Shown piece after piece: positions 1,421 through 48,660 of a stretch of DNA of 64,000 bases. The position numbers and the translations under genes are program-made. Within the stretch, counting starts at the first letter, position 1; each line of letters starts with the position of its first letter. Under the pieces are notes generated by a model. The model saw only the letters and a list, made by a program, of their open reading frames with translations. It was not told the origin of the DNA and searched no databases. The stretch spans positions 169,508,001-169,572,000 of the forward strand of contig OX597815.1 in NCBI GenBank assembly GCA_951406725.2. The letters are read 5' to 3'. The DNA is from Octopus vulgaris (Eukaryota).

Positions 1421-3369
1421 GAGATACATAAATGTATACATACATGCATATATATGTGAGTATGTGTATGTGTGTGTGTATGTGTATGTGTGTGTGTATG
1501 TGTATGTGTGTGTGTGTATTTCTGTCTCCACTCTCAGATGGAATGTCATCACACATAGCAAATCTGTAGCTGGGTATCTGACAGGTGGTACTATTCCTGG
1601 TTAGGGTAGATTTAGGAGTAATAGGAACACTCCTTAAAACCCTGGATCTCCTGAACCAGAACACCACTAGCAGACACAGTTTGAAGCCATACTCAGGACT
1701 TTATATAAGGTACATATGCTTGTATGTATTCATGTATGTATCTATGCATATGTGTGAGTTTCTGTGCATCTGAGTGTTTGTTTAAAATTGTGATTGTCTG
1801 AAAATCACTCAGCTACAAGTGTCAATGTTGCTGTCATTTTCCATGTCGATGAGTCAACTGCTAGCTTTGCACCTTTGAAAACAAGAAACTTGTGACACAG
1901 GTAAAGGTTATGGACAGCAAGGGCATCTGGTTGTTAAAATAATACCTCAATAATATTTAGCCTATGATCGTATGGAACAATGAGCATGACAGTGTGGTAA
2001 GAAGCTTGCTTCCCAACCACATGGTTTTGAGTTCAGTCCCATTGTGTGGCATCTTGGGCAATTGTCGTCTACTATAATCCTGTGCTGTCTAATGCTTTTT
2101 GAGTGCATTTGGTGGAAAGAAACTGAAAGAAGCCTGTTGTATATACAGACACACACACACATATATATATATGTCTGTATATAAATTAGTGAGTGGACAA
2201 ATGAAAGAAAAGGGTACTTAGCATATTTAGTGGGGGTTACATGTATTATATAAAATAGTTTGATTTGGTTCTATGCAGCTTAAATTTTGTAGGCCTCTAA
2301 CAGAAGCCCTTCTTTTGGCAATCCAAAACCTGAAAGAGATGGGCTTTTGTTAGAGGCCTGTGTAACTTTAAGTCACATGGAACTGAATCAAACTGTTTTA
2401 AATAGTATATATATACATACACATTAATTACACTATTTACAATTGACAGATATTTGTCCTCATCTTGTTTGCTGTTAATGCAACATTTCAGCAGGTATAC
2501 CTTCCAGTGTAATAACCAAATCAAGTAAAAGCTAGCAGATGGAAACATTTACACAACACTCACCCACTCAAGATACAAAACCTATTTAACTATAAAGTTC
2601 ACATCAAAGATCTTGCAAGCTAAATACATACAAGTATACAATATACTTACATTTTCCCAAAAAGTAACGGAAATACCAACGAGTTTGGGATTCTGGATTC
2701 TCAAGATGAATTGGGCTATTCAAGGGGCTGGGGATTTGAAGATGGTTCTAGAGAAAATAATGATAAAAAAAAACAAAAAAAAAAAACAAAGAAATAAATA
2801 AAACTTGAAAATAGAAAACAAAGAAAATTAAATTCAATTTGTTGAAATAAGAAATGAGAAATGAGAAATAGTTGTAAGATATTTCAAATTCTTGGTCACC
2901 AGTAATTAATTATATTTCTGTCGTGACAGATGTTAGCACTGAATAAATAAACTGAATATTTAAACTGGATGGATACAGCAGACGTTTTATGGCAATCTGT
3001 CATTAAAAATGGAATTGGAAGCAATGCTTTATTTTATGTTCTTTTTCAATTTTGTTGACTAATACTTGAAGACTGATGAATTACACATCAGCATCTTTAA
3101 ATGAAAATAGATATTATTTCAAGCAGTAAATTTATACCAGTCTCCAGACAGTATGTATCTAGTTTATGATAATATGTTCTCATTAATTTTAACTATAAAC
3201 AATCTTCACAGAAAGACTATGTAAATTTATATATTCAAAATAGATAATGTCATATCCTTTGTGTTGAAAAGTTATAATCAATATGACAGCAGATATTTGT
3301 CAAATGATTTCCTTGGGATCCAATATCTTCTTCCAAACACTTGTCTCACGTGGCAAGAGCCAAAGTGAG

Positions 3370-22039: not shown

Positions 22040-23030
22040 AGGCGGCGAGCTGGCAGACACGTTAGCACGCCTGGCGAAATGCTTAGCGGCATTTCGTCTG
22101 CCGTTATGTTCTGAGTTCAAATTCCGCCGATGTCGACTTTGCCATTCATCCTTTCGGGGTCGATAAATTAAGTACCAGTTACGCACTGGATCGATATAAT
22201 CGACTTAATCCGTCTGTCCTCGTTTGTCCTCTCTGTGTTTAGCTCCTTGTGGATAGTAAAGAAATAGGTATTTCATCTGCCGCTACGTTCTGAGTTCAAA
22301 TTCCGCCGAGGTCGACTTTGCCTTTCATCCTTTCGGGGTCGATTAAATAAGTACCAGTTACGCACTGGGGTTGATATAATCGACTTAATCCGTTTTTCTG
22401 CCCTTGTTTGTCATTCCTGTGTTTAGCCCCTTGTGGGTAGGTATTTCGTCTGCCGCTACGTTCTGAGTTCAAATTCCGCTGAGATCGACTTTGCCTTTCA
22501 TCCTTTCGATATAATCGACTTAATCCGTTTGTCTGTCCCTGTTTGTCCCCTCTGTGTGTAGCCTCTTGTGGGCAATAAAGAAATAAGAATCGTTAGTGTG
22601 TTGAATAAAATGCTTAGTAGCATTTCTTCCAGCCCTTTACGTTCTGTGTTCAAATTCCGGCCAGGTTGAATTTGACTTTCATTCTTCCGGGGTCAATAAA
22701 ATAAGTACCAGTTGAACACCGGGATCAATGTAATCGACACACTTCCTCCCCTAAAATTAATGGTTTTGTTCCAAAATTTAAAACCATTATTAATAAGTAT
22801 TCCTAAGGTGGTGGATTGGTCGTCGTTAAAGCGCCCGAGGAGTAAAGAATCACGATTTCTTTTGATTCTTTATATTCTGATTTGATCCTACCGACGTCAA
22901 CCTTGCTTTTCATCCATTCGGAATCGATAAAATAAAATAAAATACCAGTCATGTACTGAGTTGATGTAATTGGTCAATGTCTCCCACGAAAATTACTGGC
23001 CTTGTACCTAAATTAGAAGCAATTATTAAT
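22040..23030 (+). mobile_element. Head-to-tail cluster of about five SINE family B units
   Basis: Repeated ttctgagttcaaattccgcc...gcctttcatcc blocks at about 22110, 22290, 22460, 22640 and 22875. Confidence 0.8.
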
Positions 23031-23670: not shown

Positions 23671-24166
23671 CGGTAAAATGTTTCTGAGCAAAGCCACTTA
23701 ACGCTTAACATTATATTTAATTAGCTGTAAATAGGCTTACTGCCCAAGATAACGAGTACGTTTTATAATTGGTTTGTGTTCCATTAGGCTTAAGTAATTA
23801 GCTCAAATCCTCCCATGGGCCCGAAGACGGTTCTAAGAATCTGTCAAGAGTGTCTTAAAAATGATGGATACACACTACCTAACACACACACACACACACA
23901 CACACAACATATATGAGAGAGAAAGTGAAAGAAAATGGAATTCATGAAACTGTTTATTATCCACTACGATCGTTTCAACCCATTGTGTATCGGTGCATCA
24001 TTGGTGATGTGTCTCATTAAGTGACTTCTCAAAAGGTACCTCGCTTTTTAATCTCCGTTTCGCTTATTTCGAGTAGAATACATATTGGTGATTGTCTGTT
24101 GCTACACGTATACACGAGAAACACGAGTTAAATTATCACGGTGGCATACTACAAGGTGTATACCCA

Positions 24167-24238
<72 letters not shown>

Positions 24239-24240
<2 letters not shown>

Positions 24241-24600
24241 TAGCACTATGACCTGGCGTTGCCGGGTCATAGTGCTAGTACATGCATATACAGCTGCGTG
24301 TGTGCGCACATACACGCGAGTACTGTCCAAATCTCCGACCAATCACATACAGCTAGCTGGCATTCAATTGGCGTATCAAGTTTCGAGCATTTTGATTGGG
24401 TTTTGGATAGAAAATTCACAAAAAAGTCACTTCTATTAATTTTTTTAATGGCTTTGCGGGGTGACTGGGGAAATGTAAAGATGTGCACGACCACCCTTGG
24501 ACGGTTTTGAATGACTATAGAAAGTGCGAGCCGTCTAACTGAAAAATTGTGGATTTGTATAAAGGATACACACGCAGACATTTTGCCATTTATATATATA
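24239..24600 (-). mobile_element. Non-autonomous Helitron with palindromic 3' end
   Basis: Minus strand starts tatatataaatggcaaaatgtctg and ends gacccggcaacgccaggtcatagtgCTAGt. Confidence 0.65.
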
Positions 24601-24813
24601 TATATACTATTAAATTAGTATCTAATTCTCTCACCCTTATTAATTAATTATAATTATGCTGCATTTATTTCTAAATGCTGTATTTGTTTTCCGTGAGAGT
24701 TTGGCGCGCTGTTGGTTGGGGCATTTGAATTATAACGTCCGATGTAATCAATTGAACCGCACGCGTATTTATCGTTATGGTAAAATCTGGCGTGTGATTG
24801 AGTGGATTTCATC

Positions 24814-24907
24814 CAGATAGTCTTGGCTGAAGAGCTACAAATGGATTATTGTAAGTAATATTACATTTAATTCATTAATAGCGAAACAATTGTCCGAAAA
24901 TAATCTG
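24814..24907 (+). ncRNA. Type I hammerhead ribozyme, copy 1 (stem I variant with G-G mismatch)
   Basis: cagatagtcttgg CTGAAGA gcta...tagc GAAA C aatt G TC cgaaaataatctg; predicted cleavage after C24894. Confidence 0.8.
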
Positions 24908-25347
24908 TATTTTTGTTATTTTTTATTTGCCCTGTCCGTGTGAGCTAACAGTCGTACCGGCTTTCATGGGAAACATGTATTTTTCGTGGTTGAAACCTTT
25001 TGGATTAACTGGTGCTAGAGTGATCAATATAGTGACCACTCTCTTATATTTATTTTGTGAAAATATTATAATATGTTATAAAATATTATAATAATCCAGG
25101 TTTCTCGTAGCACTAGGCCACTTGGTGTGGAATAAATATACTATTAAATTAGTATCTAATTCTCTCACCCTTATTAATTAATTATAATTATGCTGCATTT
25201 ATTTCTAAATGCTGTATTTGTTTTCCGTGAGAGTTTGGCGCGCTGTTGGTTGGGGCATTTGAATTATAACGTCCGATGTAATCAATTGAACCGCACGCGT
25301 ATTTATCGTTATGGTAAAATCTGGCGTGTGATTGAGTGGATTTCATC

Positions 25348-25441
25348 CAGATAGTCTTGGCTGAAGAGCTACAAATGGATTATTGTAAGTAATATTACAT
25401 TTAATTCATTAATAGCGAAACAATTGTCCGAAAATAATCTG
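25348..25441 (+). ncRNA. Type I hammerhead ribozyme, copy 2 (stem I variant with G-G mismatch)
   Basis: Same as copy 1; predicted cleavage after 25428. Confidence 0.8.
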
Positions 25442-25881
25442 TATTTTTGTTATTTTTTATTTGCCCTGTCCGTGTGAGCTAACAGTCGTACCGGCTTTCA
25501 TGGGAAACATGTATTTTTCGTGGTTGAAACCTTTTGGATTAACTGGTGCTAGAGTGATCAATATAGTGACCACTCTCTTATATTTATTTTGTGAAAATAT
25601 TATAATATGTTATAAAATATTATAATAATCCAGGTTTCTCGTAGCACTAGGCCACTTGGTGTGGAATAAATATACTATTAAATTAGTATCTAATTCTCTC
25701 ACCCTTATTAATTAATTATAATTATGCTGCATTTATTTCTAAATGCTGTATTTGTTTTCCGTGAGAGTTTGGCGCGCTGTTGGTTGGGGCATTTGAATTA
25801 TAACGTCCGATGTAATCAATTGAACCGCACGCGTATTTATCGTTATGGTAAAATCTGGCGTGTGATTGAGTGGATTTCATC

Positions 25882-25975
25882 CAGATAGTCTTGGCTGAAG
25901 AGCTACAAATGGATTATTGTAAGTAATATTACATTTAATTCATTAATAGCGAAACAATTGTCCCAAAATAATCTG
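25882..25975 (+). ncRNA. Type I hammerhead ribozyme, copy 3 (intact stem I)
   Basis: Core as copy 1. The 3' strand ccaaaataatctg pairs with cagatagtcttgg at 11 of 13 positions; predicted cleavage after 25962. Confidence 0.88.
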
Positions 25976-26415
25976 TATTTTTGTTATTTTTTATTTGCCC
26001 TGTCCGTGTGAGCTAACAGTCGTACCGGCTTTCATGGGAAACATGTATTTTTCGTGGTTGAAACCTTTTGGATTAACTGGTGCTAGAGTGATCAATATAG
26101 TGACCACTCTCTTATATTTATTTTGTGAAAATATTATAATATGTTATAAAATATTATAATAATCCAGGTTTCTCGTAGCACTAGGCCACTTGGTGTGGAA
26201 TAAATATACTATTAAATTAGTATCTAATTCTCTCACCCTTATTAATTAATTATAATTATGCTGCATTTATTTCTAAACGCTGTATTTGTTTTCCGTGAGA
26301 GTTTGGCGCGCTGTTGGTTGGGGCATTTGAATTATAACGTCCGATGTAATCAATTGAACCGCACGCGTATTTATCGTTATGGTAAAATCTGGCGTGTGAT
26401 TGAGTGGATTTCATC

Positions 26416-26509
26416 CAGATAGTCTTGGCTGAAGAGCTACAAATGGATTATTGTAAGTAATATTACATTTAATTCATTAATAGCGAAACAATTGTCCCAA
26501 AATAATCTG
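26416..26509 (+). ncRNA. Type I hammerhead ribozyme, copy 4 (intact stem I)
   Basis: Same as copy 3; predicted cleavage after 26496. Confidence 0.88.
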
Positions 26510-26779
26510 TATTTTTGTTATTTTTTATTTGCCCTGTCCGTGTGAGCTAACAGTCGTACCGGCTTTCATGGGAAACATGTATTTTTCGTGGTTGAAACCT
26601 TTTGGATTAACTGGTGCTAGAGTGATCAATATAGTGACCACTCTCTTATATTTATTTTGTGAAAATATTATAATATGTTATAAAATATTATAATAATCCA
26701 GGTTTCTCGTAGCACTAGGCCACTTGGTGTGGAATAAATATACTATTAAATTAGTATCTAATTCTCTCACCCTTATTAA

Positions 26780-26866
<87 letters not shown>

Positions 26867-46044: not shown

Positions 46045-46650
46045 AGGCGGCGAGCTGGCAGAAACGTTAGCACGCCGGGCGAAATGCTTAGCAGCCCTTC
46101 GTCTGCCGCTACGTTCTGAGTTCAACTTCCGCCGAGGTCGACTTTGCCTTTCATCCTTTCGGGGGTCGATTAAATAAGTACCAGTTACGCACTGGGGTCA
46201 ATATAATCGACTTAATCCGTTTGTCTGTCCTTGTTTGTCCCCTCTGTATTTAGCCCCTTGTGGGTAGTAAAGAAATAGGTATTTCGTCTGCCGTTACGTT
46301 GTAAGTTCAAATTCCGCTGAGGTCGACTTTGCCTTTCATCCTTCCGGGGTCGATAAATAAAGGACCAGTTATGCACTGGGGTCGATATAATCGACTTAAT
46401 CCGTTTGTCTGTCCTTGTTTGTCCTCTGTGTTTAGCCCCTTGTGGATAGTAAAGAAATAGGTATTGAAATAAAGAAATAGGTATTTCTTTTATCTTTACG
46501 TTCTGAGTTCAAATTCCGCCTAGGTCGACTTTGCCTTTCATTCTTTCGGGGTCGATAAATTAAGTACCAGTTGCGTACTGGGGTCGATCTAATCGACTGG
46601 CCCCCTCCCCCAAAATTTCGGGCCTTGTGCCTAGAGTAGAAAAGATTATA
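46045..46650 (+). mobile_element. Trimeric SINE family B
   Basis: Three tandem cores separated by aaagaaataggtatt. Confidence 0.85.
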
Positions 46651-48590: not shown

Positions 48591-48660
48591 CAATTCGACC
48601 GAGCCATAGTGTCGTCTGCTAAACACTCCTCGTCGAGCAGCGAGGTCTGATGCAGGCGAA
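48591..48660 (-). CDS. GARNL3: GARNL3-like (GTPase activating Rap/RanGAP domain-like 3) coding exon, 70 nt, phase 2 to 0
   Basis: Acceptor ttttctctctttctatttacag and donor TTG|gtaaga. Translation SPASDLAARRGVFSRRHYGSVEL matches the human GARNL3 N-terminal motif EDLGCRRGDFSRKHYGSVEL as recalled. Confidence 0.9.

Follow-up and report, generated by a model that had tools for sequence, protein, structure and literature searches.

The window analyzed here, a 64,000-nt stretch of Octopus vulgaris DNA, carries at positions 24602-26788 a tandem hammerhead-ribozyme array that, judging from its sequence, very probably belongs to a young, non-autonomous family of metazoan non-LTR retrozymes mobilized in trans by an endonuclease-bearing Penelope-like element (PLE). 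A preliminary description of this DNA had proposed a retrozyme or Penelope-linked element, and this reading was supported by dispersed young arrays, a structurally conserved hammerhead and a PLE-type anatomy of the insertions. By sequence-level criteria the family would qualify as a metazoan non-LTR retrozyme; its GC content, for example, was 0.34 over 24001-26000, below the 50% criterion for retrozymes.

The array consists of four 534-bp units plus 51 bp (4.10 units in the assembled window) and is a single-armed insertion, with its 5′ start at unit position 1 and its 3′ end at site A, one of two recurrent outer ends in the family. Neighboring units differ at two positions only (G/C at 25430 versus 25964, and T/C at 25744 versus 26278), which confirmed the 4.1 near-identical 534-bp copies reported earlier. 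The unit had also been called non-coding, and we found no stop-to-stop frame of ≥70 aa inside the array. The RT + GIY-YIG ORF of an autonomous PLE was absent from the window array and from the arms of the A-end loci that were fetched. Target duplications are unresolvable within (TA)n targets, that of the window locus included. The features of the array are as follows.

24602..26788, plus strand: single-armed insertion of 4.10 units, from unit position 1 to site A
24602..25135, plus strand: unit 1, with G at unit position 295
25136..25669, plus strand: unit 2, with G at unit position 295
25670..26203, plus strand: unit 3, with the family-type C at unit position 295
26204..26737, plus strand: unit 4, with C at 295 and a private T>C at unit position 75
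26738..26788, plus strand: terminal 51 bp ending at site A (unit 45-52), with stem, CUUAU and AU-rich run
26619..26660, plus strand: site B of unit 4, with hairpin, CUUAU and AU-rich run, present in every unit
26661..26788, plus strand: "tail" of ~130 nt between sites B and A
24591..24601, no strand: left part of the (TA)n target
26785..26823, no strand: right part of the (TA)n target
24814..24907, plus strand: type I hammerhead 1, predicted cut after 24894, stem I weakened, G at 24896
25348..25441, plus strand: type I hammerhead 2, predicted cut after 25428, stem I weakened, G at 25430
25882..25975, plus strand: type I hammerhead 3, family type, predicted cut after 25962
26416..26509, plus strand: type I hammerhead 4, family type, predicted cut after 26496
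25963..26496, plus strand: sole predicted monomer between two family-type ribozymes, strongly self-paired

Other repeats were also observed in the window. The segment at 24240-24600 begins with a 39-bp near-perfect palindrome within a TA run, followed by ~310 bp that reach the left TA run of the array; it is possibly another small mobile element, perhaps Helitron-like. Short tandem arrays of a common dispersed repeat (179- and 184-bp units) occur at 22091-22508 and 46098-46465, and dispersed self-repeats make up about 25% of the 64 kb.

The ribozyme cores (CUGAAGA) are located at 24827, 25361, 25895, and 26429 and the GAAA elements at 24883, 25417, 25951, and 26485, placing the predicted cut after unit position 293 (24894, 25428, 25962, and 26496). 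Cores, stem II (gcta/tagc), stem III (AC-aatt-GU) and cut positions all agreed with those described before, and no dinucleotide-shuffled version of the unit, out of 20,000 examined on both strands, contained the motif. A complete type I hammerhead had been assigned to every unit; the core is indeed present in all four, but stem I is intact only in copies 3 and 4, where its 3′ strand reads ccaaaataatctg as reported. In copies 1 and 2 this strand reads cgaaaataatctg, and the private G turns the second pair of stem I, beside the predicted cut, into a G.G mismatch, at a cost of ~4 kcal/mol in computed folding (-15.2 versus -19.2). G at unit position 295 was seen in 1 of the 82 insertions compared. 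Since stem I is intact in two of the four ribozymes, the three clean 534-nt monomers that had been expected from a read-through transcript are not assured. The monomer predicted at 25963-26496 had a folding z score of -6.3 as a linear molecule, and the circular copy-3 monomer one of -7.8, both relative to shuffles.

A search of Rfam, which had been named as a check on the hammerhead, left the ribozyme undetected: there were no matches at the gathering threshold, and an E-value search returned two chance psm_mec matches only (E 7.7). Rfam models likely miss this ribozyme because of its long, branched stem II. A pattern search for relatives with a short stem II gave a single match, a copy of the same family whose stem II is shortened.

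Comparison of 77-82 insertions showed that core position 7 is free to vary (A51/C15/G11), with three exceptions at the remaining positions of CUGANGA and none in GAAA or GUC; a C.A mismatch in stem I was repaired in two ways among the insertions compared. In an alignment of 32 selected rows from both this family and a sister family, 95.3% of stem cells pair and 47 have changes on both sides. None of 500 shuffles reached the observed values, and slid controls paired at 29-42%. Most of the both-side changes separate the two families and thus represent few independent events, and two pair-counting measures were not above shuffles in these 32 rows. The alignment omitted 31 of 61 distinct ribozyme sequences, which were junction-cut or near-redundant, and included two added window copies. 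The palindromic 8-mer of stem III was kept in 281 of 288 copies, which a double hammerhead would require. By analogy with the dimeric amphibian ribozymes in the accessible text of PMC7229834, we infer that the two-pair stem III may be completed between two copies. One locus (L227; G000:C10:103875450-103875630) has a deletion that starts at CUGA, extends to the first base past the cut and removes the ribozyme core along with stem II, as if copying had jumped across a folded or cut ribozyme.

The family is dispersed throughout its own genome (2.8 Gb, 227 contigs), as the preliminary description would have predicted. Scoring 40 of 811 candidates gave 240 matches, most of those listed being 97-100% identical, and exact junctions between the 3′ end of the unit at site A and (TA)n pointed to at least 855 insertions genome-wide. 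A ribozyme half-motif common to this and the sister family occurred in 2,563 exact copies. The sister family, first traced from loose ends in sequencing contigs, has units of 490-506 bp that are 70-75% identical to those of the window family and a ribozyme kept with compensated stem I pairs. Its loci (L172-L202 and L217, e.g., L180:1214-1697, with L190, L195, and L182 as duplicates) have shorter arrays and A and B ends ~105 nt apart; a first look gave 1,602 candidates, and one genome pattern for this family gave 1 match. Sequencing runs from four other organisms (X16, X17, X19, and X20) share 0.36-0.47 of the unit's words, which suggests that the retrozyme family may exist in related species.

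We analyzed 98 insertions, made up of 39 top-scoring loci (the window included) and 60 loci taken in order along contig 1 by their site-A/(TA) junction, less L170. The latter and L115 are one insertion with identical flanks found at two places on contig 1, a segmental or assembly duplicate. A compound locus (L156) was left out of the 5′-end counts, and L042, L050, L061, L139, and two cut-off loci were left out of the arm-containment and flank comparisons. Two arms arranged head-to-head were present in 64 of the 98 insertions and a single arm in 34. Reinsertion as head-to-tail copies had been proposed earlier; the head-to-head arms of most sampled insertions are not the product of simple head-to-tail copying. 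The outer ends were at site A (unit 45-52) or at site B (452-457), ~130 nt apart, and 54 of the 64 two-armed insertions had strictly one A and one B end. AA or BB insertions were not found among the 64; of the remaining 10, two were incomplete at the edge of the fetched sequence and eight had one end outside the narrow A and B windows. In the top-scoring set, which was not selected by its ends, 25 of 29 two-armed insertions were AB, and simple arithmetic on this set gives a probability of 3e-8 for 25 of 25 AB insertions under independent choice of site. The contig-1 set was selected for an A end and therefore tests AA against AB only (0 versus 29). All 18 two-armed insertions of the sister family, likewise selected on the A arm, were A+B, with one B end approximate. 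L112 was scored as single-B and is probably A+B according to the junction and half-motif searches.

Both sites are preceded by a stem and then by CUUAU and an AU-rich run, and the hairpin of site B is kept in the sister family with a different sequence. Sites A and B are probable starts of reverse transcription. The flanks were TA-rich on both sides in 33 of 39 insertions, and target duplications of 13 and 14 bp were found at both of the non-TA sites among the 39 (L034 and L065). The 5′ ends were scattered over the unit, consistent with variable 5′ truncation.

A pattern search of the whole genome for arms that begin precisely at the predicted cut gave 10 matches, six of which were 5′ junctions; the other four were point changes or single-base losses (three) and a ribozyme-core deletion (one). 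In three of the six junctions both arms stop ≤3 nt from the predicted cut. The six junctions compare with a background of 1.6-3.8, a figure that is modeled only. In the sampled set, 2 of 158 5′ ends were exactly on the cut (0.3 expected; P = 0.04) and 4 of 158 were at 292-297 (P = 0.10), and of about 46 sister-family ends three were ≤2 nt from the cut, two of them on the second lap. Some templates therefore began at the ribozyme site while exceeding monomer length, but most arms end elsewhere. Two further signals were rejected. A broad enrichment of 5′ ends at 294-310 (12 versus 5) had been obtained with a reference that carried the private G and an interval chosen post hoc, and the corrected test was weaker. 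An apparent spike of within-array errors at the cut/ligation point comprised ≤2 calls per position at 289-296 and was partly due to the window's own G.

Substitutions per site amounted to 0.11% within an arm, 0.18% between paired arms and 2.6% between insertions. Thirty of 55 arm pairs were identical, and for these the arms of other insertions matched on average in 5.5%; arms of one insertion were nearly always of the same haplotype. In 10 of 42 long insertions every unit carried one and the same sample-private variant, suggesting passage through a monomer bottleneck. Rare variants were common to several units of one arm in six cases, including the G,G,C,C series of the window, versus 56 singletons, and the arrays are therefore not purely copies of single circles.

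None of the sequencing runs is annotated as RNA; four that were guessed to be RNA were compared as contigs. One of them (X2) contained one haplotype at a depth of ~990 over the whole unit, including the cut site and the unit-to-unit joint, and a contig with the B end and (TA) at a depth of 6. This pattern agrees with either an abundant circle or a single-source long multimer, between which contigs cannot discriminate. All four runs have T at unit position 357 where the window locus has C, so these runs do not speak for the window locus, and no pile-up of ends was seen in their contigs. A 17-letter loose end occurred in one contig of run X1, at a site where mispriming is plausible; it resembles a template-switching cDNA adapter on the plus strand.

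The array lies within a probable host gene, for which two candidate exons were identified in the window.

48591..48660, minus strand: candidate host-gene exon upstream of the array, with AG/GT ends
2651..2727, minus strand: candidate host-gene exon downstream of the array, acceptor position uncertain

RapGAP-domain exons, likewise on the minus strand, were found 30-52 kb outside the window, past its start, and the exon peptides look GARNL3-like. Because the candidate and RapGAP exons are all on the minus strand and the array is on the plus strand, the strand that bears the ribozyme runs antisense to this probable host gene, as had been proposed. Nothing suggests a host function of the array.

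An autonomous Penelope sharing the unit sequence had been named as something to look for, and the outcome was negative: in 62 GIY-YIG loci, with 150 of 6,136 candidates scored, the unit had no homology to the pseudo-LTR of an autonomous PLE. L217, which gave the only strong match, was considered as a partner PLE and rejected, since the match is due to an insertion of the sister family, and (TA)n lies between this insertion and a decayed PLE. The genome does contain a young autonomous PLE family with a 781-aa RT + GIY-YIG frame (16 of 150 listed matches) and a CxxxxCxxC linker preceding the endonuclease, Neptune/Nematis-like as these are described in the accessible text of PMC8557442. Its loci (L099-L110, e.g., L102:744-5960) have two ORFs, a 500-bp pseudo-LTR and a 35-nt tail; they occupy (TA)n targets and end at two positions separated by ~35 nt, each of the two two-armed copies observed having one end of either kind. 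The 479-aa ORF had no Pfam match, and a possible deviant hammerhead-like motif in the pseudo-LTR was rejected by the motif scan and does not fold as a hammerhead. This PLE is a candidate only for the driver of the retrozyme family. Two or more additional PLE families whose GIY-YIG domains are C-terminal (L203-L208 and L211-L214) were observed, with frames broken in the copies fetched.

Retrozymes, a size range that covers the 534-bp unit and a proposed PLE origin are already published, as judged from the accessible parts of the sources cited here. Metazoan non-LTR retrozymes are known from coral, the mussel Mytilus, and axolotl and newt (PMC7229834). The unit had been thought longer than typical; it is above the 150-450 bp in PMC7229834 but within the 51-972 bp of a vertebrate survey (bioRxiv 10.64898/2026.07.22.740005), so its size is not novel. 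Our literature search, mostly of open-access papers and of preprints whose supplements may list more, found no cephalopod retrozyme, consistent with the earlier statement that no description in octopus was known, and no description of paired fixed ends in a retrozyme. Like the metazoan retrozymes of these two sources, as far as they were accessible, the octopus family has non-coding, low-GC tandem units with a type I hammerhead in each, dispersed copies that range from monomers to multimers, target duplications of more than 4 bp, strongly self-paired RNA and a PLE proposed as mobilizer. It differs in the long, branched stem II that probably defeats the Rfam models and in its two-armed insertions with paired fixed ends, which are absent from the portions of the published retrozyme descriptions examined. 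Cleavage and circles have been demonstrated for metazoan retrozymes, whereas the octopus family is known from sequence alone. In its two-pair stem III and closing palindromic 8-mer it resembles the satellite-type dimeric hammerheads of amphibians (axolotl; PMC7229834, in part), and by this analogy the octopus ribozyme may depend on dimers.

With endonuclease-bearing PLEs, as described in the accessible text of PMC8557442, PMC3846280, and PMC11167929, the family shares partial tandems, an inverted 5′-truncated second copy, a one-sided tail, a preference for (TA)n, a hammerhead in the repeat and two fixed 3′ ends. PLEs are known to form tandem and inverted structures in which one of the inverted repeats bears a 30-40-bp tail (PMC8557442; PMC3846280). 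For the Anolis element Poseidon, the PLE protein begins cDNA synthesis at two internal positions, one on either side of the tail, and a predicted PLE dimer cuts and extends both strands of the target (PMC11167929). Unlike these PLEs, the octopus family has no ORF, both of its arms can exceed one unit, its tail is ~130 nt (~105 in the sister family) versus 30-40, and it has no sequence match to an autonomous pseudo-LTR among the 62 GIY-YIG loci. Two published observations, taken from the parts of the sources available, count against the proposed retrozyme and PLE reading: eight of nine predicted frog retrozymes lacked cleavage in vitro (bioRxiv 10.64898/2026.07.22.740005), and the PLE ribozyme was dispensable for insertion (PMC11167929).

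A course of events that would produce these insertions can be proposed. Family arrays appear to be transcribed, the functional strand probably being the hammerhead strand. The hammerhead would then cleave 3′ of GUC, most effectively when two copies combine into a double hammerhead and probably with low efficiency, to yield monomers that could be ligated to circles together with partly cut multimers. A PLE protein, probably a dimer, would nick both strands of a target that is AT-rich or consists of (TA)n, with the nicks staggered by 13-14 bp, a step whose footprint is visible in the genome and whose chemistry is presumed, and each nick would prime reverse transcription at a fixed internal site of the RNA, one at A and one at B. 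Each cDNA may traverse several units, after which the two cDNAs would be joined head-to-head or, as may have happened at the window locus, a single cDNA would be joined directly to the target. The G,G,C,C pattern of the window may have arisen by local duplication of units afterwards or by inheritance from a mixed multimer.

As to how the template is used, one possibility, somewhat less than evenly probable, is a double-primed rolling insertion: a PLE dimer would bind two stem-CUUAU-AU-rich modules of one circular or partly cut multimeric retrozyme RNA and prime from one target strand at A and from the other at B, and both cDNAs could lap the template before being joined head-to-head. The ribozyme would act only as a pair, leaving monomer circles stable as templates, and the GUC junctions would record cleavage in the germ line. 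The same element and enzyme could act mainly on linear read-through multimers, with a ribozyme that only trims ends and circles that are minor, a possibility that we regard as real if somewhat more doubtful. Arms of more than one unit that read through one predicted cut and end at the following one, on a later lap (L048 and L051, and L176 and L181 in the sister family) fit a linear multimer better than a monomer circle; variants common to several units point the same way, one haplotype can dominate a sample so that identical arms need not share one molecule, and uncut RNA was the main substrate in PMC11167929. Against mainly linear templates are the private variants fixed in all units of long insertions, the unit-to-unit joint of run X2 at full depth with almost no flank junctions, and arrays that reach 12.5 nearly identical units.

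An inverted arm could also derive from fold-back self-priming of the cDNA or from LINE-type twin priming on one linear RNA, which we consider improbable. The 5′ ends of paired arms were ≤25 nt apart in 16 of 57 A+B insertions (5.4 expected), which speaks in favor of such an origin, and self-priming has been proposed for PLE inversions (PMC3846280, in its accessible part). In 14 of the 57, however, neither arm can be a copy of the other, five of these having no unit position in common, and fold-back is excluded in those insertions; L068, whose A arm was over-extended by the aligner, is probably a further non-contained case. The B arm was the longer in 22 of 57 and both arms exceeded one unit in 17 of 57. 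The arms overlap in 52 of 57 with A-arm starts scattered rather than beside B, which argues against LINE-type twin priming as a general route, and the strict A+B rule follows from neither model alone. Least probable by far is a satellite or a Helitron-type rolling-circle DNA repeat whose arrays grow at the DNA level with the hammerhead as a passenger. Tandem arrays at TA-rich sites, some local duplication of units and the failure to find a partner PLE among the 62 GIY-YIG loci would be in keeping with such a repeat, but the 13-14-bp target duplications, head-to-head arms, two fixed ends, variable 5′ truncation, ribozyme covariation and junctions at the predicted cut are not. Helitrons make no target duplication and have a single fixed 3′ end. 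This explanation is largely refuted.

The integration of animal retrozymes and the origin of tandem and inverted PLE insertions with one-sided tails are stated to be open questions in the available text of PMC7229834, PMC8557442, PMC11167929, and bioRxiv 10.64898/2026.07.22.740005. The octopus family offers hundreds of young insertions that follow a strict, countable rule, with one A and one B end, a common haplotype and either arm able to exceed a unit, and it is mainly this rule that makes a PLE/retrozyme integration mechanism testable; a candidate active PLE in the same genome and two defined RNA sites are available as well. If double-primed rolling insertion is the true mechanism, it would account for PLE tails and inversions generally and would provide direct genomic evidence that retrozymes are mobilized by PLE enzymes. 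Taken as a whole, the insertion ends of this family form an unusually clear record of the apparent copying of such RNAs by PLE-type enzymes.
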